A stretch of DNA of 45,434 nucleotides. Source: a virus (lineage: Duplodnaviria; Caudoviricetes). This document shows, in pieces, positions 10,101 through 45,434 of this stretch; within the stretch, counting starts at the first letter, position 1, and every line of letters starts with the position of its first letter. The DNA is taken from the IMG/VR virus record IMGVR_UViG_3300046001_002739, positions 1 through 45,434 of that record; one strand, 5' to 3'. The notes under the pieces were generated by a model, which had not been told where the DNA came from, did not search any database, and saw nothing but the letters and a program-made list of their open reading frames with translations. The position numbers and the translations under genes are program-made.

Positions 10101-13100
10101 ACGATGCGTGCGGCGACCTGTTGGCTTAGGGCCAGGCGCTCGGCGCTGTCGAGCGCGTTCCACTCAGCGGTGAGCGCCGCGTCGTTGGGGTCGGGTGCGA
10201 CCTCGAACATGACCTTGGCGCTCGGGGTCTCAGCAGCGCCGATGTCGCCCTTGGCGTCGACCGCCTTCTGCGCCGGGCCTTCGTAGGTGCGGCTGGGGGT
10301 GTCGTTGTGCGGGACCTTGGTCCACGAGGGGGGCGTGATGTCGCCGGCCAGCGCAAGGATTTCTTTTTGGGCCTGCTCCTGGTCGAGCTCGCCCGACTTA
10401 TACCGCGCCCAGATGGCGTTGGCGGGCGCCTTCATGCCGCTCTTCTTTGCCGCCTCGAACAGACCGCGCACCGCTTCCCAGGTGATCGACTGCATCTCGC
10501 GTGGCAGGATGCCGCGCGCTTCGGCTGCACGGCGATAGGCCTCGAGGTAAATCGGGTAGGTGCCGTTCAGGCCGGTCATGTTGGACGAAGCGGAACCGCC
10601 GCCGCCGAACGCCTGGACCACCTCGATGTCGGCCGAGGCCAGCGGGCGCAGCAGTGCTGCCGCCACCGCGTGGGTGTCGATCGTTGCGTAACCGAGATCG
10701 CTGTTCGGCGCGAATATGTTGTTGTAAAAGTTGCGAACCTTGTGTTCTTTGCCAAGGTTGTAATAGACGTTTTCTGCGCGGCCATCCAACAGCACTGAGA
10801 TCGCTTTGCCGATCGTGCTGTAGGACTTCCACATCATCGTGGCGTCGCCGCTGCCCTCTTCGCCGTCCTCGCCCTTCTGCACGTAACCCGCTGCCCCACC
10901 CTCGGGGGTGAGCACTCGATAGGCCCGGTTGTTGTGGGTCTGGTCGTAGACACGAACCCAGCGGGCAGCGCTCTCGGGCGTGGCCAACAGTTCGCCCAGG
11001 GTCTTGCCCCGGGCCGGCACCATGTTGCGTTCGTTCGCCTCGGCGGATGCTCGGGCCGCGTTGACCTTCTTTTCGGCTTTGAGTCGGACTTCCTCGTTCT
11101 TCGACTTGAGGTTCTTGGCTTCCTTCGCTGCCGTCTTCTCGGCGGTGGCGTAGGCGCCCGCCACCAGGCGATCGGCCTCGGCCGACATCGCGTCATCCCA
11201 GGTGTGGTTGCGCAGGCCGAACACCATGTCGGCGATACGCTCGGCCTGGCTCACGTTGGCGAACCACCCGTTCTGCGGGGACAGCACCGCGATGGCGGCG
11301 GCGCCCTGCATCTCACTGATGCCGTAGCGGTTGGCCCAGGCCTCGACCGTCTTGCGCCCGCCGTCGTACCACTGCCGTGCGCGGTCGCGCATCTCTGCGG
11401 GCATGTGGTCGTGCAGCCACAGCAGGTTGTTGGTGACGTGCTCGATGAACGCCTCGACGTTCTTGACCGGGTCTTTAGCGCCCTTGCCCGTGAGCTTGCG
11501 CGTATTGGGCAGGGCCTGCAGCGCGGTGACGTTTTTCTCGAGCGTCTTGGTGTCGGAGAGCACCACGTCGAAGGTGATGTTCAGCACGTTGGCCAGGGGG
11601 TCCTCGGTCGCCTTGACGGCAGACGGCAGACGGGAGGACAGTGACTGCGCGTAGCTCTCGCTCGGCGTCGCCTGAATGAACCGCTTGATCAGCTCGGACT
11701 TGTAGACATTTGCGGTCTGGTCACCTGCGAACACGCCGGCGTCGGTCAGGGCCTGCAGCACCTCGGGGCTCTTGGCCAGCAGCTGCTGCCAGCGCGCCAG
11801 CGTGGGGGAGCCTGCGGGCAGTGCGGTGTTGGCGTTGAGCGCGTCGACCACAGCGTCGCGCCCCTTGGCCTCGCGCGTGCCTGCGGGGGCTACGCGCTGG
11901 CCGGTGGTCTTGCCTAAGCCCCCGAGCTGTTCGACCGGGATGTCTTGGTCACCCAGCATGATGACCTGACCAGACTGGGAGCCGCTCAGGCGGTCGAGGT
12001 AGCCCGAGAACCCAGCGTCCAGCACCTTGGACTCGAAGTCTTCCTGGCTGCCGCCCTTCAGGCGCAGCGGGTCGGTGTTGGAGTCGTAGACGTTGGTGAG
12101 CGTGGCCTTGTGCCCGCGGCCACCCACGCCTGCCTCTGGGTTGATGCCTGTGCCGGTGTCGGCGTAGAAGTACCCGCGCTTGGCCAGGCGCTTGTCCTTG
12201 GCATTCTTGAACGCCTCACGGTTGCTGCCCTGCAGCCCGGTGCCGTACATGCTGGTGCTGACGAACGAGCGGTCGGCCTTGCTGAAGTGGAAGCCCTCGA
12301 CGGTGATCTCGCCGGTCTTGCCCGCGTTCAACACCGCACCCTTGCCGGTCTTGTCGGTGAACACGATCGGGTCCTGCGCCCAGGCTTGCTCGGGCGTGAT
12401 ACCGAGCTCGCCGGCGATGGTCTTGTACATGGCCGCGAACATCGTCGCGCTGCCCTCGTTCACGTCCTTGCGGAACCGCCCAACGGCGTTGAGCTGGTCG
12501 AGCACGGTCTGCTCGACCGCGTCGTGGGAGGCCTGCCAGGCCTGCTGGTCGACGGCCTGGGCGATCACGCGCTCGGACTCCTGCGCCAGGAACTCCTGCG
12601 CCTTGGCGCCGGCTTCCTTGGCCTCGAACTGGCTCATCGCGCGCACGTCACCGATGCGGGCGTGCTCCACCAGCATCGCCTCAAGCGGGGTGCCGGGTGC
12701 GACCGTGAGTACGTCGCCCATCGGGATCGCCACCACGTCATTGGCGGCGAGTGCTGCCGCCATCTGCGCGGCGACACCGGGCAGCTGCGCCAGCACCTCG
12801 GGTGCTAGTTGGTTCAGGACCTCGGCGTCGACGTAGACCTCGGTCGGTGCGCCGTCGGTGCCCTCGGCCATCGACTGCACCAGGGCGCGGAATTCTTCAG
12901 GGTTGCGCTCACGTAGCAGTGCCTGGCTCGCCAGTGCCATCTGGCCCTTGATGCGCTCGGCCGACTGCTCGGCCTCGACGCCACGCTGGATTTCGACGTT
13001 GCTGCGTACTCGCACGCCAAGTGCTGCGCGCACGATCGCGGCGGAGGTGCCCGCGACGCTCGCCTCGTAACCCACGCCTTCGCCGATCTTGGCCTCGTCG

Positions 13101-14074
13101 TTGGTGAGCATTTTGCGCACCACGTCCTGCAGCACGCCCTCGGTCACCTCCTGGGTGGCCTCGATCCCGGCGGCGGCAAACTTGTCCGCCACCCAGCGCA
13201 GGGCGTTGTTCTTGATCGCAGGCGGCACCCGGTTCAACAGCGCGTCCACCCCGTATTTTTCGGTCAGCGCCGTGATGCTGGCGCCGGCGATGACCGCGGT
13301 GTCCTTCAGCGCCTGCGAGCTGTTGTCCCCCTTGACCTTCTCGTTCATCACGTCCGCGCCCTGCGCGAACAGCGAAACAAGCGAGGCCGTGCCGCCGGTG
13401 GCGATCTGCAGTCCGACCTGCTGCAGCAGCTGGCCGATACCGCCCGCCACATCGGTGGCAAAGTTCTTGTTCTCGGGTGCTGGGCCGATCACATCGCCGA
13501 GCATCTTCCAACCGCCGCCCACAGTCTTGAGCCCGCCCGCCACGTCGAGGGCCAGGCCCAGGTCGGCGCCGGTCAGATCACGCACGGCCTTGGAGACGGC
13601 CGTGAGGCCCGTGGCTCGGGCAGCAACGTCGACACCGACGCCCAGACCTGAGACCAGGGTGCCGACACCGGTGACCGCGCCTGCGGGCAACGCGCGCACG
13701 ACGTTGAAGGTCTGCTCCAGCGCGGAGAGTTCGGGGATGTGGTCGTGCACCTGGCGGGCAAACGTGCCGCCGGTGCGCATGTACTCGGCCAGTTTAGGCG
13801 AGGTCTTGAGGTGTTCGTCGGCCTTGTCCACGGCCTCCTGCAGGCGCACGTCGCGCAGGTTGCGCAGCAGTACGTCCTCTGGCGCAGGGTAGCGCTTGGC
13901 CAGGCGGGCGGCCTCGGAGGCGTCGTCCGCGCTGGTGCGGACTGCATCGTTCAACTTGAAGCGCAGGTCTTGCTGTTGGTCGCGCTCAATCGTCGCCAAA
14001 GCAAAGGGATTGCCGGTGGCCGGTGCTTGGCCAGTGGGCTCGATGTTCTTCAGCGAAAACGGGTTGTCAATCAC
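4103..14074 (-). CDS. Giant internal virion/ejection polyvalent protein (ART-like x3, HhH-glycosylase-like, SAM-lyase-like, HExxH zincin domains)
   Basis: 3323-aa ORF at the end of the ejection-protein cluster; VVYHGT and VVYHGS ART-PolyVal-type motifs, HEMAH, TIDTHA. Confidence 0.8.
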   Translation of the reverse strand: MIDNPFSLKNIEPTGQAPATGNPFALATIERDQQQDLRFKLNDAVRTSADDASEAARLAKRYPAPEDVLLRNLRDVRLQEAVDKADEHLKTSPKLAEYMRTGGTFARQVHDHIPELSALEQTFNVVRALPAGAVTGVGTLVSGLGVGVDVAARATGLTAVSKAVRDLTGADLGLALDVAGGLKTVGGGWKMLGDVIGPAPENKNFATDVAGGIGQLLQQVGLQIATGGTASLVSLFAQGADVMNEKVKGDNSSQALKDTAVIAGASITALTEKYGVDALLNRVPPAIKNNALRWVADKFAAAGIEATQEVTEGVLQDVVRKMLTNDEAKIGEGVGYEASVAGTSAAIVRAALGVRVRSNVEIQRGVEAEQSAERIKGQMALASQALLRERNPEEFRALVQSMAEGTDGAPTEVYVDAEVLNQLAPEVLAQLPGVAAQMAAALAANDVVAIPMGDVLTVAPGTPLEAMLVEHARIGDVRAMSQFEAKEAGAKAQEFLAQESERVIAQAVDQQAWQASHDAVEQTVLDQLNAVGRFRKDVNEGSATMFAAMYKTIAGELGITPEQAWAQDPIVFTDKTGKGAVLNAGKTGEITVEGFHFSKADRSFVSTSMYGTGLQGSNREAFKNAKDKRLAKRGYFYADTGTGINPEAGVGGRGHKATLTNVYDSNTDPLRLKGGSQEDFESKVLDAGFSGYLDRLSGSQSGQVIMLGDQDIPVEQLGGLGKTTGQRVAPAGTREAKGRDAVVDALNANTALPAGSPTLARWQQLLAKSPEVLQALTDAGVFAGDQTANVYKSELIKRFIQATPSESYAQSLSSRLPSAVKATEDPLANVLNITFDVVLSDTKTLEKNVTALQALPNTRKLTGKGAKDPVKNVEAFIEHVTNNLLWLHDHMPAEMRDRARQWYDGGRKTVEAWANRYGISEMQGAAAIAVLSPQNGWFANVSQAERIADMVFGLRNHTWDDAMSAEADRLVAGAYATAEKTAAKEAKNLKSKNEEVRLKAEKKVNAARASAEANERNMVPARGKTLGELLATPESAARWVRVYDQTHNNRAYRVLTPEGGAAGYVQKGEDGEEGSGDATMMWKSYSTIGKAISVLLDGRAENVYYNLGKEHKVRNFYNNIFAPNSDLGYATIDTHAVAAALLRPLASADIEVVQAFGGGGSASSNMTGLNGTYPIYLEAYRRAAEARGILPREMQSITWEAVRGLFEAAKKSGMKAPANAIWARYKSGELDQEQAQKEILALAGDITPPSWTKVPHNDTPSRTYEGPAQKAVDAKGDIGAAETPSAKVMFEVAPDPNDAALTAEWNALDSAERLALSQQVAARIVPQVLKELGTDGDFVMQLGGYMGATNPSMTLRLARPELALTAAKMLGHALAQDSMMVVTERQTLGADPVGVVTVTLPEGYGETEISALYDKLWELEQDSQKLIGGHTTADGQMVILNYSGLEDAELARLVDEQLGGEFPVAIDTVYSAFPGKEDYGYGSNGQEGTTPTGQSPAQRRPSGFRAEATQLLREALDARRASGETYAQEGVSQPLLAPNGKPSNLTPAQHALVRTPEFKTWFGDWEAFTSVEGGVWSDTAGSVSKAVDENGEPLVVYHGTDIGGFTEFKTPGGKNRGDLGIFLTPNRQMARSYVKRNRGGENFTPEDMTGDPFQNGSKSGIYPLFVNIRSPNEANFEGANWDGSRVEQFEIFDENGDNLYSPEGKGFFTESERDAELDRLNAEDISARAEPAGDHYESTDSVVRDARKANNDGAIIRQVMDDGGGNSGYAGEPSDVFVAFDPTQLKSVDNFGTFDPADPNILKQGPRGTFNPKSFELALNPDANLSTVHHEMAHAYLEILTRIAARPNPPDGLMANLDRFLKWQGIADLDTWNAMTLDQKRPHHEALAEGYEQYLLTGKAPSLELQPLMRKLKAFMLNVYKSLKAFVAQRSAAPAGGDALGQTDNFAEWFGDSKVVDARGKPRVVYHGSPKAGFDTFGTSNVGVFFSSRNDVAASYAGSYDDVESDSEEMPGVYNVYLKLNNPMVIDWNGKDWGDGPEGLKLDDWANRAKSAGHDGLIVEDVNDTGWLAPGLVDDNGNGTVYVAFDSNQIKSTDNANPTDSPNIYGQNNEPSNLKLPPEMVQFYDRMLASEEQIAQAEEVAGLLPNEDATAEAVEKLTARSLRDLKWTVNARNKEIKKLQDQAKELRKGVEAEVRAEVDAMPEFQAKAALDKLRESTPEFKDALKDWNGRRGAALERATEALKAELLAANPEVKGLQKGQLLAKNKRDMANQAEAQALAWEKENPKPQKPIPADNDLQMATIADSFNYPDVPTMLQAIDVAGKKADAIEGMTDQRMLERHGDLIDQRAIEAAANEAVHNEARARSLATELRSQAEMLNPRADTGEVNAKGSKITVNAIVEAAKQFAANVVARTPLRDLKAKAWQHTAAERRAGKRWQEATAAGKTQDAVKAKQDQVLNNAAAKAALEAQGEMRKILTFFKRVIKDNNEKTVEKGRDPDVVNAARAVLGAYGIAPRGAKTAAEYMDLVAKNDPAMYAALQPSVQGALNMAQPLDALTMEELRGLHEEIQAMWHLAKRSRQMEIDGNLMDMQDAEDELQDRMQAIGVPLTMPGDSSAVTPREALARKLQHVGSLLRRTEQWAQGMGQEFTRLVFQPVKDAANAYRADRVAYRKKYQALVDNVAPALTKGTIDAPELGYTFGKGHNGIGHAELLHAILHTGNASNKRKLLLGRGWAAENADGTMDTTQWDAFLQRMHDTGVLNKAHYDFAQGVWDLLEQTKPLAQKTHRDVFGRYFAEVTADSFDTPFGGYAGGYVPAQADPSIVQDADLRKLAEAENENMAFSFPGTNKGFTKGRVDYNRPLMLDLRTIGQHIDKVLLFSHMEPAVRDVQKLLSRKGVSYSLGRIDPTIYAGMLTPWLNRSARQIVETPIVGDGGISRVLSAARNRAGMALMFANVSNTIQQLTGFSLAALKVKPASMMRATSQFIASPKKTAKAVSDASEFMANRMDNEIAAINDAMDQILLDPSLYEKAQTWSQKHAYFMQTAMANTMEPIIWTAAYNDALTSLPALVTTGLTSDQVKAAMAERERDAVRAADSVIRTTQGSTLPEDVSRIETGPAYARIFTQFIGYFNMMANTNATALKQISQEVGLKKGAGKAIGVVTLGFLIPIWVAEAIAHAMRGGPDDEDDDGYLDDWLAAVFGMGTIKGSLAMVPFVGQLANAGINRFNGNPADDKVSLSPAVSLLESAVGVPVDVYKAITDPDKLNTRNAVRDVASAVSLATGLPAVAVARPLGYLAGVATDKIDPTSAFDALRGTVTGTPSPDSK
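9481..9633 (-). CDS. Overprinted 50-aa protein nested out of frame in the giant gene
   Basis: AAGGAGG (9643-9649) 9 nt before the ATG; MAVTDRRGQPLPDNHPLKGGQVVFGQKRP... Confidence 0.55.
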   Translation of the reverse strand: MAVTDRRGQPLPDNHPLKGGQVVFGQKRPSSSAKPSTPAAPAEKPTPKKA

Positions 14075-30780: not shown

Positions 30781-30869
30781 TGATCGCGCGCCGCTGACAT
30801 CAGGCAGGCCAGGGCGTAGCCCAGGGCCACGCCAGCGTAGAACAGCGCAGCCCCCACGAGCAGGCTCAC
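30777..30869 (-). CDS. 30-aa membrane peptide (not in the ORF track)
   Basis: GTG overlaps the cro stop; SLLVGAALFYAGVALGYALACLM. Confidence 0.5.
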   Translation of the reverse strand: MSLLVGAALFYAGVALGYALACLMSAARDQ

Positions 30870-31195
30870 AGCGCCAGCTCCAGCTGGCGGGCATCGACAA
30901 TTGGGAAATCAGACACCACGGCACGCTGGCCCAGGCACTTGGCGGCGTAGCTGCATCCCCGGCACGCCTCGCACACGTCCGTGCGGTAGACGATCGGAAG
31001 GCGGCCTTTGCTGGCCTTGGCCATCTCCATCGTCGAAGACTCAATACGCCCGGCCATGTCCGCACTGGCCTGCCGGTGGCCGCCGGCGAGTTGGTACATC
31101 TGCCCGCGGGTGGTGCCGACTTTTTGAGCCAGCAGGTGTTGTTCGTCGGCCGTGGCTGCGGACATCCAGGCCTTGATAGATGTAATGGTTTTCAT
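30866..31195 (-). CDS. cro: Cro-like regulator with C-terminal 4-Cys cluster
   Basis: LAQKVGTTRGQMYQLAGGHRQAS HTH; divergent from the repressor; CEACRGCSYAAKC. Confidence 0.75.
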   Translation of the reverse strand: MKTITSIKAWMSAATADEQHLLAQKVGTTRGQMYQLAGGHRQASADMAGRIESSTMEMAKASKGRLPIVYRTDVCEACRGCSYAAKCLGQRAVVSDFPIVDARQLELAL

Positions 31196-31201
31196 CCGCG
31201 C

Positions 31202-31259
31202 AGTTTAGCAGACGGTACAGATATTGCGTGATCTGCTACAAATTGATACCGTGCGCGAC
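31202..31259. promoter_or_regulatory. Divergent cro/cI promoters with two operator-like sites
   Basis: + strand: TTGCGT-N17-TACCGT, 7 nt to ATG. - strand: TGcTAAACT, 6 nt to ATG. Operators at 31206-31217 and 31227-31238. Confidence 0.75.
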
Positions 31260-31676
31260 ATGAAAAGCGTCTATGAACAGCGCAGGGACAACCTGCGCAA
31301 ACTGCAGGTCGAGTGGGGCGGGCCCACCTCGCTCGCCAAGAAGCTCGGCCACAGCAATGGTAGCTACCTGGCCCAGCTCATCGGCCCGCACCCCTCGCGC
31401 GAGATCTCGGAGAAAGTCGCGCGCGAGATTGAAACCAAGCTCGCCCTGCCGTCGAACTGGTTGGACGCCGAGCACGGCGCATCGCCCAGGCAAGTCGACG
31501 ACAACACGCTCGCCCTGTGTGTCGGGGCCGTCGCCGCGGCAGTGCGCGACGCGGGCGCGAAGGTCGCCCCGCAGGCTTACGGCACTTTAGTCACCCTGGC
31601 TTATGAGCACTGCAAGCTCACCGGTCGCATTGATGAATCCTTTATCCAAAAACTTGTGGGGCTCACCATAAAATGA
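31260..31676 (+). CDS. cI: CI-like repressor (HTH, no S24 peptidase domain), leaderless
   Basis: RRDNLRKL...GGPTSLAKKLG...ISEKVAREIE...WLD, a typical phage repressor N-domain. Confidence 0.8.
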   Translation: MKSVYEQRRDNLRKLQVEWGGPTSLAKKLGHSNGSYLAQLIGPHPSREISEKVAREIETKLALPSNWLDAEHGASPRQVDDNTLALCVGAVAAAVRDAGAKVAPQAYGTLVTLAYEHCKLTGRIDESFIQKLVGLTIK

Positions 31677-35885: not shown

Positions 35886-37964
35886 ATGATGCGAATTCTC
35901 TACGGCGACACAGAAACGTACAGCGAGTGCGACCTCTCCAAGTGCGGCAGCGCACGCTACGCCGAAGACGACAGCACCGAGATTACCATTGCACAATGGG
36001 CGCTCGATGACGACGAGCCCACCGTCTGGGACTGCACCGCCAACGGCCGGCCCCAAGCGTTCATCGACTTGCTACTGGCGCCTGACACGGTGTTGGTATT
36101 CCACAACAGTTCGTTTGATAGAGCGGTGATCCGCGAAGTCTGGGGCATCGACCTGCCGCCCGAGAAGTTTCTCGACACAATGGTCAAGGCCCTGGCGCAC
36201 GGCCTGCCAGGCTCACTGGATAAGATCGGGCAGATCGTTGGCCTCGAAGCTGATCTGGCCAAGGACAAGCGCGGCCGCGAGCTGATCATGCTCTTTGCAA
36301 AGCCTCGGCCAAAGAACAGCATTTTAAGAAGGGCTACCCGTGAAACTCACCCTAAAGAATGGTCTGAATTTTTATCGTACTCGCGCCAGGACATCATCGC
36401 CATGCGCGCGATCGACCAGCGGCTGCCCAGTTGGAATTACCGCCCCGGTCACCCAGAGCTCGCATTGTGGCACCTCGACCAGCGAATCAACACAAGAGGC
36501 ATTGCGGTCGATACACACCTCGCTGAGTCAGCTATCGCTGCGGTAGCTAGAGAACAGAAGCGACTCAAGGAGGAGGTCAACACCGCGACCGAAGGCTTGG
36601 TAACCAACACCAGCCAACGCGACAACCTACTGACCTTCATCTGCGCCGAGCACGGGGTGAACTTGCCAGACCTCAAGGCCGACACCCTGCGCCGCCGCAT
36701 CGACGACCCCGAGCTGCCCGAGGCGGTCAAGTTGCTGATCAGCATTCGCCTAGAAGCCACGAAGACCAGCACGGCAAAATATAAGGCCCTGCTCAACGCG
36801 GTGAACCGCAACGGCCGGCTGTGCAACAGCATGCAGTTTGCTGGCGCCTCACGCACGGCACGCTGGGCGCACCGGCTATTCCAGCCTGGCAACATGCCGC
36901 GGCCTGACATGAAGAACCCGGCGATCGCTGAAGGTATCGAGGCGCTCAAGGCCAACTGCGCGGATCTCTTTTTTGAGAACGTCATGCGCCTGACGGCGAA
37001 CACTGTGCGAGGTTGCATCGTGGCGCCGCCCGGCAAGAAGCTGGTGATCGCTGACTTGTCCAATATCGAGGGCCGCGGCCTGGCGTTCCTGGCCGGCGAG
37101 CGTTGGAAGCTCAAAGCCTTCGCAGACTTCGACGCCGGCATCGGCGAGGATCTCTACAAAGTAGCATACGGCCGGTCGTTCAACGTCGACCCGAAAGAAG
37201 CCTTCGGTCAGAAGCGCCAGATCGGCAAGGTCATGGAGCTGGGCCTGGGGTATGAAGGCGGTGTCGCCGCGTTCCTGACCTTCGCCGTGGTCTACCGCAT
37301 GGACCTGATCGAGCTGGCCACCGCGGTCTACGGCACCGCCAGCCCCGAGGCCATGGCCAACGCGCTGGGCATGTGGAAATGGGCCACAAAGATGAAGCGC
37401 ACGCTCGGCCTGCCCGAGAACATCTATGTGGCCTGCGAGATCCTCAAGCGTGCGTGGCGCGACGCGCACCCCAACACAACCGCACTGTGGAAGGCCGCCG
37501 GTGACTCCGTGCGCGCTGCGATCAACAACCCGGGCCAGACCTTCGACATCGGCGAGCACCTCAAGGCCCGCCGCGACGGCGCCTGGCTGCGCATCCGCCT
37601 GCCATCTGGCCGGTATCTTTGCTACATCAACCCGCGCGTCGATGACGACGGGCAGATCACATATTTTGGCGTCAACCAATACACGAGGCAGTGGGGCGCG
37701 ATCAAGACGTATGGGGGCAAGCTCGTAGAGAACTGCACCCAGGCCTTCGCCCGCGACATCATGGCCAGCGCGATGCAGCCAATCGAGAATGCCGGCTACG
37801 AGATCGTGCTCTCAGTGCACGACGAGCTGCTGACCGAGACCCCAGACAGCCCCGAGTTCAACACCGCAACGCTGGCTGGGATGATGGCCACCGCGCCGAC
37901 CTGGGCCAAAGGTATTCCGCTCGCCGCTGCGGGGTTTGAGACTACGCGCTATCGCAAGGATTGA
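35886..37964 (+). CDS. polA: DNA polymerase family A with 3'-5' exonuclease
   Basis: DTETY exo I, motif A DLSNIEGR, motif B RQIGKVMELGLGY, motif C VHDE. Confidence 0.93.
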   Translation: MMRILYGDTETYSECDLSKCGSARYAEDDSTEITIAQWALDDDEPTVWDCTANGRPQAFIDLLLAPDTVLVFHNSSFDRAVIREVWGIDLPPEKFLDTMVKALAHGLPGSLDKIGQIVGLEADLAKDKRGRELIMLFAKPRPKNSILRRATRETHPKEWSEFLSYSRQDIIAMRAIDQRLPSWNYRPGHPELALWHLDQRINTRGIAVDTHLAESAIAAVAREQKRLKEEVNTATEGLVTNTSQRDNLLTFICAEHGVNLPDLKADTLRRRIDDPELPEAVKLLISIRLEATKTSTAKYKALLNAVNRNGRLCNSMQFAGASRTARWAHRLFQPGNMPRPDMKNPAIAEGIEALKANCADLFFENVMRLTANTVRGCIVAPPGKKLVIADLSNIEGRGLAFLAGERWKLKAFADFDAGIGEDLYKVAYGRSFNVDPKEAFGQKRQIGKVMELGLGYEGGVAAFLTFAVVYRMDLIELATAVYGTASPEAMANALGMWKWATKMKRTLGLPENIYVACEILKRAWRDAHPNTTALWKAAGDSVRAAINNPGQTFDIGEHLKARRDGAWLRIRLPSGRYLCYINPRVDDDGQITYFGVNQYTRQWGAIKTYGGKLVENCTQAFARDIMASAMQPIENAGYEIVLSVHDELLTETPDSPEFNTATLAGMMATAPTWAKGIPLAAAGFETTRYRKD

Positions 37965-39886: not shown

Positions 39887-40065
39887 GCGGCGCGCCAAGG
39901 ACTCCACGTCCGCAGTCGATGCCCCGGCTGTCTGATGCCGACGTCGCGGACATCCGCGCGATGCGAGCGCAAGGGATCTGCTACAAGCTGATCGAGCGCA
40001 AGTACCCCGTGCACCGTGTCACCTTGAGTCGCGCTGCGAACGGGAAAGTCACGTATGCGCCGTAG
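39883..40065 (+). CDS. Small HTH protein
   Basis: RLSDADVADIR...YKLIERKYPVHRVTLSR. Confidence 0.6.
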   Translation: MSGAPRTPRPQSMPRLSDADVADIRAMRAQGICYKLIERKYPVHRVTLSRAANGKVTYAP

Positions 40066-41452
40066 GGTCTACACTCCCCGCGCGTTCGCCCCGCTGGCGA
40101 TGTCGCACATGGCTGGCGCGCAGCGCTGCGCCATATTCGCCAAGCCCGGCATGGGCAAAAGTGTGATGGCGCTGACGTTCCTCGACCACCTGCACAACGT
40201 GTGGGGCGAGGACCGCCCGACGTTGGTGCTGGCGCCCCTGCGCGTGGCGCGCGACACCTGGGCCAACGAGGCGCACAAATGGGACCACCTCGCAGGGCTC
40301 GAGGTTGTGCCGATTGTAGGCGACGCCGATCAACGCAAGGCTGCGCTGCGCCGGGATGCTCCCGTCTACACCACCAACTACGACAACCTAGTCTGGCTGC
40401 GCGACCAGTTCGAGGGCAAGCCCTGGCCCTTCGCCACGGTGGTGGCGGATGAGTCCACCAAGCTCAAGGGCTTCAGGCTGCGCCAGGGTGGCGTGCGAGC
40501 ACAGGCGCTCGCCCAGGTTGCGCACAAGGATGTGCAGCGCTGGATCAACCTCACAGGCACGCCAGCAAGCAACGGGCTCGAGGACCTGTGGGGCCAGACA
40601 TGGTTCTTAGACGCCGGGGTCCGCCTGGGCCGCACGTTCTCGGCGTTCCGTGACCGCTGGTTCAGGCCGGTCAAGGCTGGCGACTTCCACAACTACCGAG
40701 CCACCGACTACGCCCAGGCCGAGATCCAGGAGCGCATCGCCGACATCTGCCTGACGCTGGACCCCAAAGACTGGTTCGACCTCAAGGACCCGATTGTCAA
40801 CATCATCGACGTCGAGCTGCCCAAAAGCGCCCGCGTGAAGTACCGCGAAATGGAGCGCGAGCTTTTCACGATGATTCAGGACAAGGAGGTCGAGGCCCTG
40901 AGCGCCGCGGCCAAGAGCCAGAAGTGTCTGCAGATGGCGAACGGCGCGGTGTACCTGGACCCCGAGCGCTACGGCGCTGGCACATGGGTCGAGGTACACA
41001 CCGAGAAGCTCGACGCGCTTGAGGAGCTGGTCGAGGAGACCGGCGACGAGCCCCTGCTGGTGGTCTATTACTTCAAGTCGGATCTGGCCCGTCTGCAGCG
41101 TCGTTTCCCCGACGGTCTGAACCTGAGCGAGCCCGAGGGCATGGCCGCCGCGATGGCTGGCAAGGGCAAGCTATGGTTCGGCCACCCGGCCAGCATGGGC
41201 CACGGCGTCGACGGACTGCAGTACCACTGCAACACGATCGTGTTCTTCAGCCAGGATTGGAACTTGGAAAACCACGACCAGGTGCTCGAGCGCGTCGGGC
41301 CGATGCGCCAGCTGCAGGCAGGGAAGGACCGGGGCGTGTTCGTACACTACCTGGTAGCGCGTCAGACAATCGACGAGCTCGTGATGGCCAGGCGCGAGTC
41401 CAAACGCTCAGTGCAAGATTTATTACTCGATTATTTGAAAGGCAAACAATGA
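40055..41452 (+). CDS. SNF2-family helicase
   Basis: PGMGKS, VVADES, LTGTP, QVLERVG. Confidence 0.9.
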   Translation: MRRRVYTPRAFAPLAMSHMAGAQRCAIFAKPGMGKSVMALTFLDHLHNVWGEDRPTLVLAPLRVARDTWANEAHKWDHLAGLEVVPIVGDADQRKAALRRDAPVYTTNYDNLVWLRDQFEGKPWPFATVVADESTKLKGFRLRQGGVRAQALAQVAHKDVQRWINLTGTPASNGLEDLWGQTWFLDAGVRLGRTFSAFRDRWFRPVKAGDFHNYRATDYAQAEIQERIADICLTLDPKDWFDLKDPIVNIIDVELPKSARVKYREMERELFTMIQDKEVEALSAAAKSQKCLQMANGAVYLDPERYGAGTWVEVHTEKLDALEELVEETGDEPLLVVYYFKSDLARLQRRFPDGLNLSEPEGMAAAMAGKGKLWFGHPASMGHGVDGLQYHCNTIVFFSQDWNLENHDQVLERVGPMRQLQAGKDRGVFVHYLVARQTIDELVMARRESKRSVQDLLLDYLKGKQ

Positions 41453-41778
41453 ACCGACCGCTCACCCCAGCCGAGGCGCTGGCCACCTTCACCCCCGAGG
41501 CCGACGCCCTGCTCGACAGCCAGAAGCGCGGCCTCCTTTCCCCTCGCAGCGCCTTGGACGTGCAGGTCGCCGGCAGTCACTACAAGGGCAAGAAGATCCA
41601 GCCTGTGGAATACATCCACGCCAACGGTCTGGGCTTTCTCGAAGGATGCATCGTCAAGCGCATCACGCGCTGGCGCGACAAGCCGGCCGCCAGTCGTTTC
41701 CAGGACCTGGAGAAGATCAAGCACGAGGTCGACCTGCTGATCGAGTTGGAGAGCCGCGCGCAAGGAGCAAAGCCATGA
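41449..41778 (+). CDS. DUF3310 family protein
   Basis: QVAGSHYK...IQPVEYI...GCIVK...DLEKIKH. Confidence 0.8.
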   Translation: MNRPLTPAEALATFTPEADALLDSQKRGLLSPRSALDVQVAGSHYKGKKIQPVEYIHANGLGFLEGCIVKRITRWRDKPAASRFQDLEKIKHEVDLLIELESRAQGAKP

Positions 41779-42107
41779 GCCACCACACTCCATGGCTACC
41801 CATCCGTGTATTTTTTCAGGGGCAAAACGTACCCCCATGGTTTCAAAAAGTATCCGTATTAGCCACCCCACGCAGCAGCGGCCCGCCTAAAGTTATTTTC
41901 GGTTCCCCATCGCTATGCATCTGTTATAAAAACCAGTTTTTCGTTTGGGCACCCCTGACAAATTATTTTCTTAAGTGCTTCATTAATATAACCGGCAACG
42001 GCAACGAAGTGACGCTGAGAGGTGGAAGAGATGGCGTTTCCGTGTACTTTTCATTGTTCAAAATGCTCGCCAAAATGCGTAGTGTGGCAAAAGGGGCGAA
42101 GCCATGA
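41775..42107 (+). CDS. AT-rich hypothetical protein flanked by junction repeats
   Basis: 110 aa; ATGA overlaps at both ends. Confidence 0.5.
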   Translation: MSHHTPWLPIRVFFQGQNVPPWFQKVSVLATPRSSGPPKVIFGSPSLCICYKNQFFVWAPLTNYFLKCFINITGNGNEVTLRGGRDGVSVYFSLFKMLAKMRSVAKGAKP

Positions 42108-42373
42108 GCGCACACGCAGTATCAAACGCCCTCGCCCTCGCCCCTGCGACCGCCAAGGAGCTGATGGTCGCCACGGGTCTGAGCCGGGGCTTCATCAATG
42201 CGACGCTGCTGGGCATGGTCAAAGCACACGAGGCGCACGTGTCGCACGTCCAGCGCCAGCCGGGTGTGGCCGGTCGTCCCAGCCCGGTGTATCAAGCAGG
42301 GTTTGATTGCGCCGCGGGCGCCCAGACCTTGGCGCACGTGATGCGGACCTGGGGGTCACCATGTGCCGCTTGA
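42104..42373 (+). CDS. Winged-HTH-like protein
   Basis: TAKELMVATGLSRGFI...GRPSPVY. Confidence 0.6.
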   Translation: MSAHAVSNALALAPATAKELMVATGLSRGFINATLLGMVKAHEAHVSHVQRQPGVAGRPSPVYQAGFDCAAGAQTLAHVMRTWGSPCAA

Positions 42374-42448
42374 CCCCTGCTTGTGTGCTTCTCGCCACAC
42401 TTCGTTATGTCGCGCCGATCACCACGGGCGCGTTCTTCAGGAGACACC

Positions 42449-42643
42449 ATGAGTGACGACATTGACCGCGCACAGAACGAAGTCGAGCGCTCGCTCGGCG
42501 AGGCACTGCGCGTGAAGAAACCGGTGGGGCCTGTCGCCACCGGGCGCTGTTTGTTCTGCGATGAAATACTGGACGACGAGAGTCGCTGGTGCGACAGTGG
42601 TTGCCGCGATGCCTGGGAAGGTTTGCTAAAGCGAAAACGCTAG
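42449..42643 (+). CDS. TraR/DksA-like C4 zinc-finger protein
   Basis: DDIDRA (DxxDxA) plus CLFC...CDSGC; AGGAG RBS. Confidence 0.75.
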   Translation: MSDDIDRAQNEVERSLGEALRVKKPVGPVATGRCLFCDEILDDESRWCDSGCRDAWEGLLKRKR

Positions 42644-42727
42644 TGCATATTGCACAAAACAGGCCCCTTCGGTAGGGTGTTTTGAGCAGTAAGTATGGGG
42701 TAAGCAGTGGGTGGCTTTAGCATTTTG

Positions 42728-42755
42728 CTTGGTCACAATATACATTATGCGTACT
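42728..42755 (-). other. dif-like Xer site A
   Basis: Reverse complement AGTACGCATAA-TGTATA-TTGTGACCAAG; 21/28 to E. coli dif. Confidence 0.7.
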
Positions 42756-42774
42756 GTGGCATAATTATGTAAAT

Positions 42775-42808
42775 ACGCAGGTGCTAAGGATTTCGTTAGC
42801 TCCTGCTA
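42775..42808. promoter_or_regulatory. Tandem operators upstream of the mom-like gene
   Basis: ACGCAGGTGCTA and TAGCTCCTGCTA, 22 bp apart. Confidence 0.7.
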
Positions 42809-42821
42809 CAGAAAGAACCAA

Positions 42822-43505
42822 ATGTGGACCGTTGAACCGATAACCAAAAAGCAAGCCGATCTGATCGTGACCAGCCGCCACTACAGTCGTCGGGCTCCTG
42901 TGTTCTGGGAAGCCTTTGCACTGGTTGAGGATGGGTTCGTCGAGGGTGTCGTGATCTACGGGCAACCCTCACCGCCGATCCAGAAGCATTCGTTCGACGA
43001 CCGGGACTTCCGGTTGTACGAACTGGCCCGGCTCGTAATCCAGACGACTAAACCAAACGCGGCCAGCTTCCTCGTGGGCCGTTCTCTGCGCATGCTGAAG
43101 GAACAACCCAGCGCGGTGGTGTCATACGCCGACACGGAATGGGGCCACGCTGGTGTGGTCTATCAGGCCACCAACTGGATCTACACCGGCGCCACGAAGT
43201 CGCACGACCACGCCTATATGGTTGACGGCAAGCGCCTGCACCCGATGTCACTGCGCGACCAGGGCATCACCAACCCTAAACAGTGGGCCGCCGAGAATGG
43301 CATCCAGACGGCGCCCCCGATGGAGAAGCACCGCTACTTCTACATCAACGGGAACAAGTACCAGCACCGCGACATGCTGTCCAAACTGAAGTACCCCGTC
43401 GTCGGCCAGTACCCAAAGCTAGAGAAGCGCATGTATGACGCTGGGGCTGGGGTTCTCCTCCACACCAAGGACGTGATGGCCGACGGGTTCGGTGGCTTGG
43501 CGTGA
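42822..43505 (+). CDS. mom: Mom-like DNA adenine modification enzyme (GNAT)
   Basis: HYS, ELARL, SYAD..WGHAGVVYQATNWIYTG. Confidence 0.8.
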   Translation: MWTVEPITKKQADLIVTSRHYSRRAPVFWEAFALVEDGFVEGVVIYGQPSPPIQKHSFDDRDFRLYELARLVIQTTKPNAASFLVGRSLRMLKEQPSAVVSYADTEWGHAGVVYQATNWIYTGATKSHDHAYMVDGKRLHPMSLRDQGITNPKQWAAENGIQTAPPMEKHRYFYINGNKYQHRDMLSKLKYPVVGQYPKLEKRMYDAGAGVLLHTKDVMADGFGGLA

Positions 43506-43624
43506 GGCTGCTAAAGGACTTTTGTGCATCCTGCACTCAAAAACCGCTGTCATAAAAAACAAAAAGCGAACTCGACATTGTGCGAGATGTATCACGGAAC
43601 TCGTTGAAAAGGTTAGATAAGATG

Positions 43625-43652
43625 TACGCTAAGAATATACATTATGCGTCCT
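43625..43652 (-). other. dif-like Xer site B (degenerate XerD arm)
   Basis: Reverse complement AGGACGCATAA-TGTATA-TTCTTAGCGTA. Confidence 0.6.
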
Positions 43653-43671
43653 GAAAGAGGCATTATGACAC

Positions 43672-43705
43672 TAGCAGATGCTAAAAGATGTGGTACACTC
43701 TGCTA
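43672..43705 (+). promoter_or_regulatory. Promoter with tandem operators
   Basis: TAGCAGATGCTA, TGgTACACT, second site 22 bp downstream. Confidence 0.75.
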
Positions 43706-43732
43706 CAGAATCAACCACTTAAGGAAAGCAAA

Positions 43733-43921
43733 ATGGCCACTAAACTCGACACCCTCATCGCCTGGATCAACAACCATGACTGCGGCGTTACACCCACTGC
43801 TGTGGCCGTCGAAGGTGGCATCGAGATCCGCGTCCAAGCGGTGCACGCGGATGGGTCTACCAGCGTGGATCGGACCCTGGTAACTTGCTACAGCCAGGCC
43901 CGCGACGTCTTAGGTTACTGA
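43733..43921 (+). CDS. 62-aa hypothetical protein
   Basis: AAGGAAAG RBS; MATKLDTL...ARDVLGY. Confidence 0.7.
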   Translation: MATKLDTLIAWINNHDCGVTPTAVAVEGGIEIRVQAVHADGSTSVDRTLVTCYSQARDVLGY

Positions 43922-43994
43922 GCTGAAAACCATTTAACAATGTTCAGGCGATAGCGTACCAGTTGCGCGAACGCCACAACCTAGGAGAATCAAA

Positions 43995-44285
43995 ATGAAC
44001 AACACATCAACCCTCGCCGCCAACATGCGCAACGCCTTCATCGAGCGCAAAGGCGCCACCATCGGCGGCGGAAAATTCACGCCCGAGGAGCTGAAGGACG
44101 GCGCCTTTGCCCTTAACGCCGTGCCCAATTTGCTGGAAGCGCTGCGCGACATCGAGGCTCAGCTGTCTGGGCACCCCGACGCGGAGCGGGGTAACAGCAA
44201 GGTTCACTACTGCTTGCACAAAGCCCGCGGCGCCATCGCACGCTGCACACCCCAAGTCCCTGCTGCGGCAGGCCTTAACCCCTGA
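43995..44285 (+). CDS. Hypothetical protein
   Basis: AGGAG RBS; PNLLEAL motif. Confidence 0.75.
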   Translation: MNNTSTLAANMRNAFIERKGATIGGGKFTPEELKDGAFALNAVPNLLEALRDIEAQLSGHPDAERGNSKVHYCLHKARGAIARCTPQVPAAAGLNP

Positions 44286-44320
44286 ACGTAAGCGCCGTTA
44301 TGCGAACCAAGATTCAAGAA
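44245..44320 (+). repeat. 76-bp junction repeat copy 1, containing dif-like site C (44281-44308)
   Basis: Aligns without gaps to 44625-44700; CCTGAACGTAA-GCGCCG-TTATGCGAACC. Confidence 0.75.
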
Positions 44321-44677
44321 TTATCTGGCGTAGATCTCGACCAGGCGGTTGCCGACGCGGTGGGCGTCAAGGTTGGTATCTGTCTGGGTGGCTATCTCGC
44401 CCTGGCCGATAGCATCAAGCACCACCGGTACTGCGCGAAGGGCTACTCCCCTTCCACCGACTGGGCGCAGGGCGGCCCCTTGCTGGAGGAGTACGCCATC
44501 GGCGTGATCGCCATCTCAGACGCGGAGTGGGCGGCCGTCGAGCAGATCACGCACTGCCACGGTCGGGGCCCAACCTACCTGGTGGCCGCGATGCGTTGCC
44601 TTGTGGCTTCGCTCGTTGCAGAAAGCACACCCCAACCCGCTGACCCGTCAGCGATCAACCCTTTGAAAGAATCGTGA
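44300..44677 (+). CDS. DUF2591/NinX-like protein
   Basis: ELSG.DLD.AVA, YSPSTDWAQGGPLLE, GPTYLVAAMRC. Confidence 0.8.
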   Translation: MRTKIQELSGVDLDQAVADAVGVKVGICLGGYLALADSIKHHRYCAKGYSPSTDWAQGGPLLEEYAIGVIAISDAEWAAVEQITHCHGRGPTYLVAAMRCLVASLVAESTPQPADPSAINPLKES

Positions 44678-44700
44678 TTATGCGAACCACAATTCAAGAA
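44625..44700 (+). repeat. 76-bp junction repeat copy 2, containing dif-like site D (44661-44688)
   Basis: CTTTGAAAGAA-TCGTGA-TTATGCGAACC. Confidence 0.75.
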
Positions 44701-45171
44701 CCCATGTTCTACATCGCCAGCCTGAAGCACACCCAGAAGCACCATGAGCACATCACCTGGTGGGGTAAAGACAGCCGCGGCTACACCCCCGTCGTCGGTG
44801 ACTACATCGGCGAGTACCCGCTCTGGGAAGCGCTTCGGCTCAACGACGGCGTGGACTGCCTGGCGGTGCCTGTCGACGTGGTCAAGTCCTTTGTGAGCCC
44901 TGAGCCTTACTGGAAGCCGGGCGCCAAGTTCTACGACCAAGTCGGTCCTGTGGTCGACAACACCCGGGCGTTGTGGAACCGGCTGATCGCCGCGTCCCTC
45001 GCTGAAGGACGGCACAGCAAGCCGAAGCCCGAGGTGTTTCGCGGCAGCCGCCGGGGGTTTCTAACATGGCGTCAGGTACACGGGTTGTCATTTACTCCCT
45101 TTCATCGCCGTCGCAACGGCTGGCACAATTTTCTCCGCGGTTCTACCAATGACGTAACCGCCGAGGCCTAA
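44680..45171 (+). CDS. Hypothetical protein
   Basis: MRT start equivalent to the previous gene (alternatives 44674 or 44704); ITWWGKDSRGYT. Confidence 0.7.
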   Translation: MRTTIQEPMFYIASLKHTQKHHEHITWWGKDSRGYTPVVGDYIGEYPLWEALRLNDGVDCLAVPVDVVKSFVSPEPYWKPGAKFYDQVGPVVDNTRALWNRLIAASLAEGRHSKPKPEVFRGSRRGFLTWRQVHGLSFTPFHRRRNGWHNFLRGSTNDVTAEA

Positions 45172-45434
45172 TTCAACGATGGACCAGAGCTTGAGATACT
45201 CAGCTTCGGATAAATTGGGTGCCGCCCAGCCGAACCAGCGCGCCACGATGAGCGCACCGAAGGTCAGCATCAGGATGGGGCGCCAGGACGAGGCCAGCCA
45301 GTTCTCGCTCGCGGCCTCGGTCTTGACAATCTCGGCGCGCTGCGTGAACTCGGCGAGCTCGCCCTTCTGCGCCAGCTCCAGCATCGCCAGGCGTGCCTGG
45401 TCGCGCTGCGTGGGGTCTGGCCACAGCCGGTCGA
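45088..45434 (-). CDS. 3' part of the putative 3-TM holin (starts at 176)
   Basis: WRPILMLTFG...GLGGYVIGRTAEK. Confidence 0.7.
   Translation of the reverse strand, partial: DRLWPDPTQRDQARLAMLELAQKGELAEFTQRAEIVKTEAASENWLASSWRPILMLTFGALIVARWFGWAAPNLSEAEYLKLWSIVELGLGGYVIGRTAEKIVPAVATAMKGSK
45308..45434. repeat. Terminal direct repeat (copy 2)
   Basis: Identical to 1-127. Confidence 0.9.

Follow-up and report, generated by a model that had tools for sequence, protein, structure and literature searches.

A dif-like site in the integrase slot of a BPP-1-like podovirus clade as a candidate attP for the host XerC/XerD recombinases

By analogy with TLC-phi, and with a probability that we put at about 0.62, site A of the phage described here would be the attP of a BPP-1-like clade that replaced its integrase module by a mimic of the host dif; these phages would integrate at dif through the host XerC and XerD and a predicted XafT-like activator, whose gene the present genome lacks. 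The window, that is the whole stretch of 45,434 nucleotides analysed, is the complete genome of a tailed phage of 45 kb (direct terminal repeat of 127 bp, completeness 100%). Integration at dif had been put forward by the initial annotation for this phage itself. The proposal finds support for the clade, because the site occupies the int/attP slot, matches host dif, is mutually exclusive with an integrase and lies alongside a XafT homolog. It fares less well for this genome, in which there is no activator gene, and no prophage was found; the genome is probably an activator-less derivative.

The phage was recognized as a BPP-1-like podovirus from the gene order and the virion and replication families it shares with Bordetella phage BPP-1; membership of the genus Rauchvirus is not claimed, the DNA match amounting to 2% of a 23-kb query. 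Virion genes and terminase are followed by primase, a divergent cro-like/repressor pair, exonuclease, SSB, PolA, SNF2 helicase and a DUF3310 ORF, and then by converging lysis genes, so that primase, polymerase, helicase and terminase are all encoded by the phage. In BPP-1 (NC_005357.1), the helicase and bbp48 precede xis, int and attP. The corresponding slot here is occupied by a DksA-like gene, by sites A and B with a Mom-like gene between them, and by four small ORFs (Table 1). A BPP-1-like phage was also seen outside Bordetella, as a Pandoraea nosoerga prophage (L101, 6624-13027) which is 98% identical to BPP-1 over both compared stretches and whose integrase protein is identical.

Table 1. 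Features of the candidate attachment region and of selected lifestyle genes, in window coordinates.
Feature	Coordinates	Strand	Details
cro-like gene 30866-31195 (-) and repressor 31260-31676 (+), divergent	30866..31676		repressor phrog_12107, E 3e-11; synteny with BPP-1 bbp31/bbp32
PolA, Leu in motif B	35886..37964	+	same residue in BPP-1
Left context	40055..42643	+	SNF2 helicase 40055-41452, DUF3310 ORF, small ORF 42104-42373, DksA-like zinc finger 42449-42643
Imperfect inverted repeat	42711..42736	+	right arm is most of the XerD arm of A; centre resembles phage operator palindrome
Site A, conserved attP-type dif mimic	42728..42755	-	AGTACGCATAA TGTATA TTGTGACCAAG; XerC arm 42745-42755, centre TGTATA 42739-42744, degenerate XerD arm 42728-42738
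Leader of Mom cassette	42756..42821	+	operator-like palindromes 42797-42808, partial copy near 42778; lone XerD-arm-like word 42765
Mom-like DNA modification protein, A-B cargo	42822..43505	+	PF25680 E 3e-34; phrog_1384 E 4e-46
Site B, cassette border	43625..43652	-	AGGACGCATAA TGTATA TTCTTAGCGTA; XerC arm and centre intact
Leader with operator palindrome 43672-43683	43653..43732	+	equivalent leader precedes XafT-like gene in most relatives
Two small ORFs, cargo between B and C	43733..44285	+	43733-43921, 43995-44285
Site C	44281..44308	-	GGTTCGCATAA CGGCGC TTACGTTCAGG; dif-like arms, non-dif centre; 18.6 bits arms-only vs best random 12.3
NinX-like ORF, start inside XerC arm of C	44300..44677	+	PF10765 E 6e-14
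Site D	44661..44688	-	GGTTCGCATAA TCACGA TTCTTTCAAAG; type as C; 19.3 bits arms-only vs 12.3
ORF phrog_23101, start inside XerC arm of D, converges on holin	44680..45171	+	
Holin, start of converging lysis/structural arm (right context)	45088..45384	-	phrog_3427, PF11351

The phage had been described at the outset as temperate-looking, with a cI/cro switch and operators but with neither a tyrosine or serine recombinase nor ParA/B in a complete genome, and our searches bear this out. The divergent repressor and cro-like genes are present together with operator-like palindromes. Six-frame searches of the whole genome with PF00589, PF00239, PF07508 and PF13614 (ParA) gave no match, and no recombinase or partition family, ParB and protelomerase included, was found among 52 selected ORFs of the 297 listed, this 52-ORF family scan being the one that covers ParB. 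A hidden integrase was rejected after the four six-frame family searches and two ORF scans, none of which returned one, and the partition system or protelomerase expected of a P1/N15-type plasmid prophage was not found (PF13614 searched in six frames, ParB and protelomerase families in the 52 ORFs). The ORF at 42104-42373, considered as an excisionase or alternative activator, was discarded with no family or Atlas match. Leu762 of PolA, read initially as a temperate sign, is indeed present; it is not discriminating, because the integrase-bearing BPP-1 shares it, and it was dropped as lifestyle evidence. The repressor itself is 138 aa long and gave no peptidase-family match, the cI of BPP-1 being longer and annotated as UmuD-like; its induction may not proceed through self-cleavage.

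Two observations were made elsewhere in the genome. Positions 4103-14074 encode a virion protein of 3323 aa, a polyvalent protein combining ADP-ribosyltransferase (ART-PolyVal), LPD22 and DUF7178 domains, which the phage probably injects into the bacterial host. In the tail-spike gene, one part (999-3000) has a GC content of about 49%, compared with about 63% genome-wide, which suggests an exchanged receptor-binding domain.

Sites A and B are direct repeats lying 897 bp apart. Both keep the TGTATA centre and a good XerC arm, as had been noted, and the XerC arm plus centre of A is identical (17/17) to the dif of a Burkholderiales genome (G066, locus L305). The XerD arm of A is degenerate and retains T1, T2, T4 and G5; that of B keeps T1, lacks G5 and has no hairpin. 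Even with 3 mismatches allowed over the whole genome, the 14-mer common to A and B was found at no other place than these two, a loose count which is not significant alone (8 of 100 shuffles reach 2). Matrix scores were calculated against 27 distinct Burkholderiales chromosomal sites. Partly circular in their XerC-arm share, the host sites having been found with the phage word, these scores were 29.3 bits over 28 bp for site A (best of 60 random genomes, 13.9) and, for site B, 24.8 bits on XerC arm plus centre (random best, 20.3) and 2.2 bits over the full site. The XerD arm was not part of the query, and a canonical XerD arm followed the phage word in 27 distinct cases among the 43 host loci read. 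Of 401 genomes sampled in the order to which a Rhodoferax MAG belongs, 137 had the 14-letter word with one mismatch allowed, and in all five closed chromosomes it lay 44-56% of the way round from dnaA, as dif should, the full canonical site being read in three of the five. Because of the canonical XerD arm and the position at the terminus, the 14-letter word was taken as the XerC arm and centre of dif. Variant centres found in phage sites (TGTGTA) likewise match variant centres of host dif.

The resemblance to the TLC-phi attP that had been pointed out thus holds in its details, with a dif-identical XerC arm and centre and a degenerate XerD arm with T1 and G5. T1 and G5 of the XerD arm are needed for XafT-driven TLC recombination, and when FtsK acts by itself, the preferred sites are those that agree with the five inner bases of this arm (PMC9226527, in part); A agrees with four of these five. 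Several other matches were discarded. The family of the Rhodoferax MAG (G050) is an unlikely host, its XerC arm being different; the dif XerC arm of this family ends in GATACGA or CCACGA, and activator homologs directly adjoin it. Low-GC viral contigs matching the 14-mer were not retained as dif mimics, the word lying inside a coding gene in the four that were read, nor were two isolate proviruses in which it lies at a gene start. The lone XerD-arm-like word at 42765 is within chance.

A scan with the helicase yielded 66 viral loci, the 43 closest of which were taken as the close set. The site was found in 32 of these 43 loci, on the same strand and 0.6-2.5 kb after the helicase, or in 32 of 38 when close loci with less than 1 kb downstream are set aside, counts which are not independent given that several close loci are near-duplicates; none of the other 23 helicase loci had it. 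The inner XerC arm and the centre are near-invariant in relatives and the XerD arm varies. Its position 5 is nevertheless G in 19 of 19 distinct sites and in 30 of 33 in a larger set, both counts excluding the loci from a pattern scan in which G5 was required. PF00589 matched 5 of 50 records (49 of the 66 loci, and BPP-1), none of the five carrying the site, and no serine recombinase match was obtained in 36 records. A quick helicase tree of 89 rows, built with no bootstrap, placed all site- or activator-bearing rows in one group of 58 (SH-aLRT 92, not starred), and the site and an integrase were never seen together across the 89 rows. Two relatives nested among the site-bearers (L030 and L041) have no site and carry an integrase in the same slot. 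The absence of an integrase is not diagnostic, because in 9 of 21 near-complete relatives the site is missing as well.

Clustering of the ORFs around the site revealed one family placed after the XerC arm. Five of the six clade proteins tested were over the DUF3653 (PF12375) cut-off, with weak HTH matches, and the structure model of the protein (pLDDT 85; no PDB match at E<=0.001) shows a beta hairpin and a long helix in addition to an XRE-type HTH. Alignment with the VC1465-like protein of TLC-Kn1 by hhalign gave a probability of 94.7% (E 6e-8, 78 columns). XafT is VC1465, which combines an XRE HTH with DUF3653 and is encoded on the XerC side of attP (PMC6744903, in part). At least 2.9 kb of downstream sequence was available for 33 close loci; 27 of them had the site, 22 had both site and activator and none had the activator without the site. 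When the activator was used to find loci, 44 viral loci were obtained; the site lay upstream in 38 of them with no more than 2 mismatches and in 41 with no more than 3, and at -48/-49 from the activator in 14. The XafT-like factor for which the initial annotation had advised a search is therefore present in 22 of the 27 site-bearing relatives and absent from the genome in which it was to be sought: relatives encode it between the site and the holin, and here this place is without it, the whole genome giving no PF12375 match and no clade-profile match at E<1. The five other site-bearing relatives also have no activator, one of them (L016) keeping a fragment only. In most relatives the leader between site and activator starts after the XerC arm and carries an operator palindrome, which also precedes other early genes of this genome; from these repeats, we infer that the activator leader would be under repressor control.

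Distant homologs of the activator were present in 31 of 301 genomes of one host family (G180/G449). In 11 of the 20 regions read in this family, the homolog lies between a degenerate-D site and a canonical dif, an arrangement which is the expected product of TLC-type integration. Two further searches of host families with the activator profile gave 0 of 172 and 0 of 1. Many Burkholderiales chromosomes have elements of 1.3-2 kb, some larger, between a degenerate-D site and dif; these carry an HTH-DUF3653 gene and no clade phage genes, and some are in tandem (L483). With their resemblance to minimal TLC-type elements, they could be a source of the activator in trans. The same site and activator module, with the two parts 35-74 bp apart, was also seen in a more distant phage group (three loci, with a contig of 41 kb) that shows no match, within the locus, to the helicase or polymerase of this phage. 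A 44-kb contig of a Burkholderiales MAG (L074, 13313-13822) has the activator and, 47 bp upstream of it, a site with the quite different centre TAGTGA.

The same data were examined for the view that the clade is lytic or nearly so, with the site a vestige or a hotspot of short-homology cassette exchange between phages and A/B a duplicated leader module. The activator has been lost several times, the leaders after A and B share the operator and other repeats, many co-occurring strains differ exactly at these sites, and the 9 of 21 near-complete relatives mentioned above have no visible integration system, all of which this view would accommodate. We consider it unlikely. A vestige would hardly account for an inner XerC arm and centre that stay near-invariant, for a G5 kept while other XerD-arm bases vary, or for an activator that 22 of 27 site-bearers have kept intact, many of them with it at a fixed distance; the agreement of variant phage centres (TGTGTA) with variant host dif centres also speaks for an attP.

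The XerD arm of A is overlapped by an imperfect inverted repeat. In shuffling tests (mononucleotide shuffles, 36-nt segments), 24 of the 33 distinct phage primary sites had a DNA-fold z below -2, versus 1 of 28 host dif flanks, with a value of -2.1 for A; B, C and D do not have this inverted repeat. With the register chosen per site, several pair types were observed per position of the palindrome, and pairing is therefore favoured. A phage HTH protein may bind beside XerD, because the centre of the palindrome resembles the operator. A folded attP of the CTX type was rejected, the hairpin covering the XerD arm only, the XerC arm not being rebuilt and the centre being fully dif-identical, and a matrix scan of the genome detected no second, inverted dif-like site above chance.

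Conservation of this hairpin in phage sites and its absence from host dif could also mean that the HTH-DUF3653 protein is a regulator or a packaging-type factor acting on the hairpin over the XerD arm, with a XerC binding that is regulatory and not recombining. A precedent exists in PSB15, a DUF3653 protein of Xanthomonas filamentous phages; it lacks an HTH and binds to a packaging hairpin, and integration does not require it (10.1101/2024.03.19.585677, in part). The operator-bearing leader that starts right behind the XerC arm, and a sigma-70-like promoter that overlaps A on the minus strand (chance level 1.3), would suit such a role. We give this explanation very little credence, considering that HTH and DUF3653 are in one chain, as in XafT and unlike PSB15, that the phage has its own terminase, and that host homologs of the activator adjoin dif.

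A and B had both been proposed as attP. Comparison with relatives leaves this role to A, the conserved attP-type site, and makes B the border of an inserted cassette. In the locus L004, whose helicase is 97% identical, the XerD side of A (47/48) is joined to the XerC-side flank of B (75/80), and the same joined form was recovered in contigs of runs X1, X2 and X7. It is because of this empty allele that A is considered the conserved site and B the cassette border; on sequence grounds, the 897 bp with mom between them form a cassette whose gain or loss took place at the site. The B-type flank is present twice in L333, and a search of viral contigs with the B-type border pattern gave nothing, the pattern being too narrow to match even L333. 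A second type of cassette border, with the XerD arm GACCGAGGCGG, was found in seven loci; it has its own perfect inverted repeat and a conserved flank, and it recurs before different genes. Six loci contain two or three dif-centre sites each. The ORFs 43733-43921 and 43995-44285, behind B, had no family match. Upstream of the array, an AT-rich intergenic stretch (41780-42100, 47% GC) is absent from L004, and in contigs of runs X2 and X4 it is replaced by 7 letters (joint from 41751 to 42103); this is a second, site-independent insertion.

Beyond the coordinates of the original A/B observation, two further sites, C and D, were recognized. All four sites are on the same strand and in direct orientation, and four of the five CG[CT]ATAA words of the genome are on the minus strand within 42.7-44.7 kb. 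Contigs of public runs have joints at 44659 and 44688 (site D). On the plus strand, the upstream ORF ends and the next one begins within site C, and the XerC arms of both C and D give the ATG of the following ORF. Sites of the C/D type were present in 8 of the 43 close loci, before unrelated ORFs beginning Met-Arg-Thr, and a scan of the collection with the commonest form returned 7 contigs, all known members of this clade. T1 was found in 13, T2 in 15 and G5 in 11 of 16 distinct C/D-type sites, the 6-nt centre being the most variable part. We infer that Xer moves cassettes at the sites, a type of move for which sequence alone cannot tell Xer from short-homology recombination.

C and D might instead be portable stop-RBS-start junctions that were copied from gene to gene and resemble Xer arms only secondarily, a serious possibility that we rate somewhat below even odds. 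Each of them holds a stop codon, a purine-rich stretch and an ATG; about 70 nt upstream of C/D-type sites are conserved too and encode the C-terminus of the upstream protein, and variation of the C/D-type XerC arm falls at silent codon positions. Unlike centres block a full Xer crossover, and the centres of C and D differ from that of dif, so that a full crossover with dif would be blocked. Copied junctions do not readily explain the 11-6-11 layout with its most variable 6-nt centre and frequent T1, T2 and G5, nor arms-only scores above those of all 60 random genomes. The C/D-type sites moreover share the strand of A and B and are limited to the attachment region of this clade (7 contigs), and the unrelated ORFs behind them are all forced to begin Met-Arg-Thr.

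No prophage or host junction of the clade was found in any collection searched. The initial annotation had expected related prophages with ends at dif, and none was seen there or elsewhere in bacterial genomes; it had also proposed reads joining A or B to host terminus DNA, and no such junction was found in the collections searched, a single contig of run X1, which may be the source, running unbroken through A and B. Species-representative genomes gave 54 helicase loci (best full-length match 64%), none with the site. A metagenome pattern scan returned 27 loci, four of them clade sites and all four in phage context; a canonical XerD arm was found at 0 of 44 activator loci, and the 6 loci with an attR-type pattern had no clade genes. 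In 38 host regions (18 + 20) around distant activator homologs there was no match to 23 phage proteins. None of the best 120 activator and best 120 helicase homologs is on a contig longer than 46.8 kb, and in a capsid-based scan none of the best 80 of 227 was on a contig over 46.7 kb. The provirus class did not occur among the site-bearing virus records checked. The contigs of L007 and L020 stop in or just before the XerD arm, which fits any branch point and was not counted. The missing junctions lower the case for integration but do not refute it, because most contigs are short and the true host is probably poorly sampled.

These searches bear on another suggestion made initially, dimer resolution of a plasmid-like prophage. 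In its general form, the site would recruit the host Xer system for dimer or concatemer resolution of an extrachromosomal genome, plasmid-like or in a carrier state, with no integration. The absence of a junction in every search, the phage-sized or shorter contigs of all 240 best homologs and the phage's own primase, polymerase and helicase are in agreement with it. We nevertheless keep it as a minor and quite unlikely rival. The phage has no ParA or other partition family and no close relative among plasmid records (best 50.5%), a dif-identical centre with a weak XerD arm is the integration pattern of TLC and the gonococcal genetic island (PMC5357621, in part), and the small host elements that share this site and activator are found integrated.

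If site A is the attP of the clade, then by analogy with TLC-phi the predicted activator would turn on XerD in the attP x dif synapse independently of FtsK, and the weak XerD arm would keep FtsK from excising the prophage. The operator in the activator leader would link integration and excision to the lysis-lysogeny switch. Cassettes would accumulate in direct orientation, A-mom-B and then C and D, because the site presumably recombines. This genome, devoid of the activator, would integrate only with an activator in trans, or rarely through FtsK, or it would be effectively lytic. A more ambitious picture, which we hold tentatively and judge rather doubtful as a whole, is that of a widespread freshwater clade of tailed podoviruses which exchanged its integrase for a TLC-type Xer module and employs the same host recombinases for gene capture in an integron-like array; the XerC arm would provide the cassette start codon, the palindrome over the XerD arm would control the reaction, and activator-less members would be helped by co-infecting relatives. 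The array also suggests how anti-defence genes such as mom may be gathered by phages of this kind.

A tailed phage that has no integrase is routinely taken to be virulent or a plasmid prophage. If the clade lysogenises through the host Xer system, integrase-based lifestyle calls miss a class of temperate phages, for which the 28-bp site with a DUF3653 gene would be a marker, and Caudoviricetes with a full repressor switch would join the small non-tailed elements as hijackers of Xer. Nature supplies phages with site and activator, with the site only, with an integrase instead and with neither, a series in which the roles of the activator, of G5 and of the palindrome can be tested. The literature, searched by title or abstract opening and with subscription journals largely outside the searches, yielded no tailed phage exploiting Xer, the exploiters being filamentous phages, TLC, gokushoviruses, tailless double-jelly-roll phages and islands. 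The PMC6744903 supplement, in the part covered, contains neither 'terminase' nor 'Caudovirales', and its hit lists in figures and an online tree may include tailed prophages. The initial statement that known Xer-exploiting phages are mostly ssDNA has to be widened to dsDNA tailless phages (PMC12715192, in part).

The nearest known system is TLC-phi, a satellite phage of Vibrio cholerae that uses XafT/VC1465. As in the present clade, it has a good XerC arm, a dif-identical centre and a degenerate XerD arm keeping T1 and G5 (PMC6744903, PMC9226527, both in part), with an HTH-DUF3653 gene on the XerC side of attP and no integrase (PMC6744903, in part). Unlike TLC-phi, the phage described here is a tailed podovirus whose dsDNA genome of 45 kb encodes its own polymerase, terminase and repressor switch, with hosts of the Betaproteobacteria type; it has a hairpin over the XerD arm, a cassette array and no activator in its genome, and its integration is a prediction. 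In the dif-type double-jelly-roll prophages of Vibrio, which have the XafT-like P15, a dif and activator module alternates with an integrase module on a shared backbone, as here; these prophages are tailless and small, and their junctions have been curated in host genomes (PMC12715192, in part). For the activator-less genome, the closest parallel is the gonococcal genetic island, which is large, has a degenerate-XerD site and no activator of its own, and is proposed to be helped in trans; it differs in being a conjugative island whose integrated form is known (PMC5357621, PMC6744903, both in part).

BPP-1 (Rauchvirus; NC_005357.1) has in common with the phage its replication, switch and virion gene order and families, as well as the Leu in PolA motif B. 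It differs in having xis, a tyrosine integrase and a tRNA-His attP in the slot of the dif-like array. In the pdif modules of Acinetobacter plasmids, the XerD arm is kept and the orientation mostly alternates; unlike these, the sites of the present array are all direct and in a phage genome, and the XerC arm of C and D supplies a start codon. Both pdif modules and the IMEX arrays at dif (10.64898/2026.06.12.731946, in part) have accessory genes between Xer-type sites of varied centre, and direct-orientation arrays occur among them, as found here. What this locus contributes is an array whose cassettes have their start codons in the XerC arm, together with the palindrome and the lack of an activator gene.
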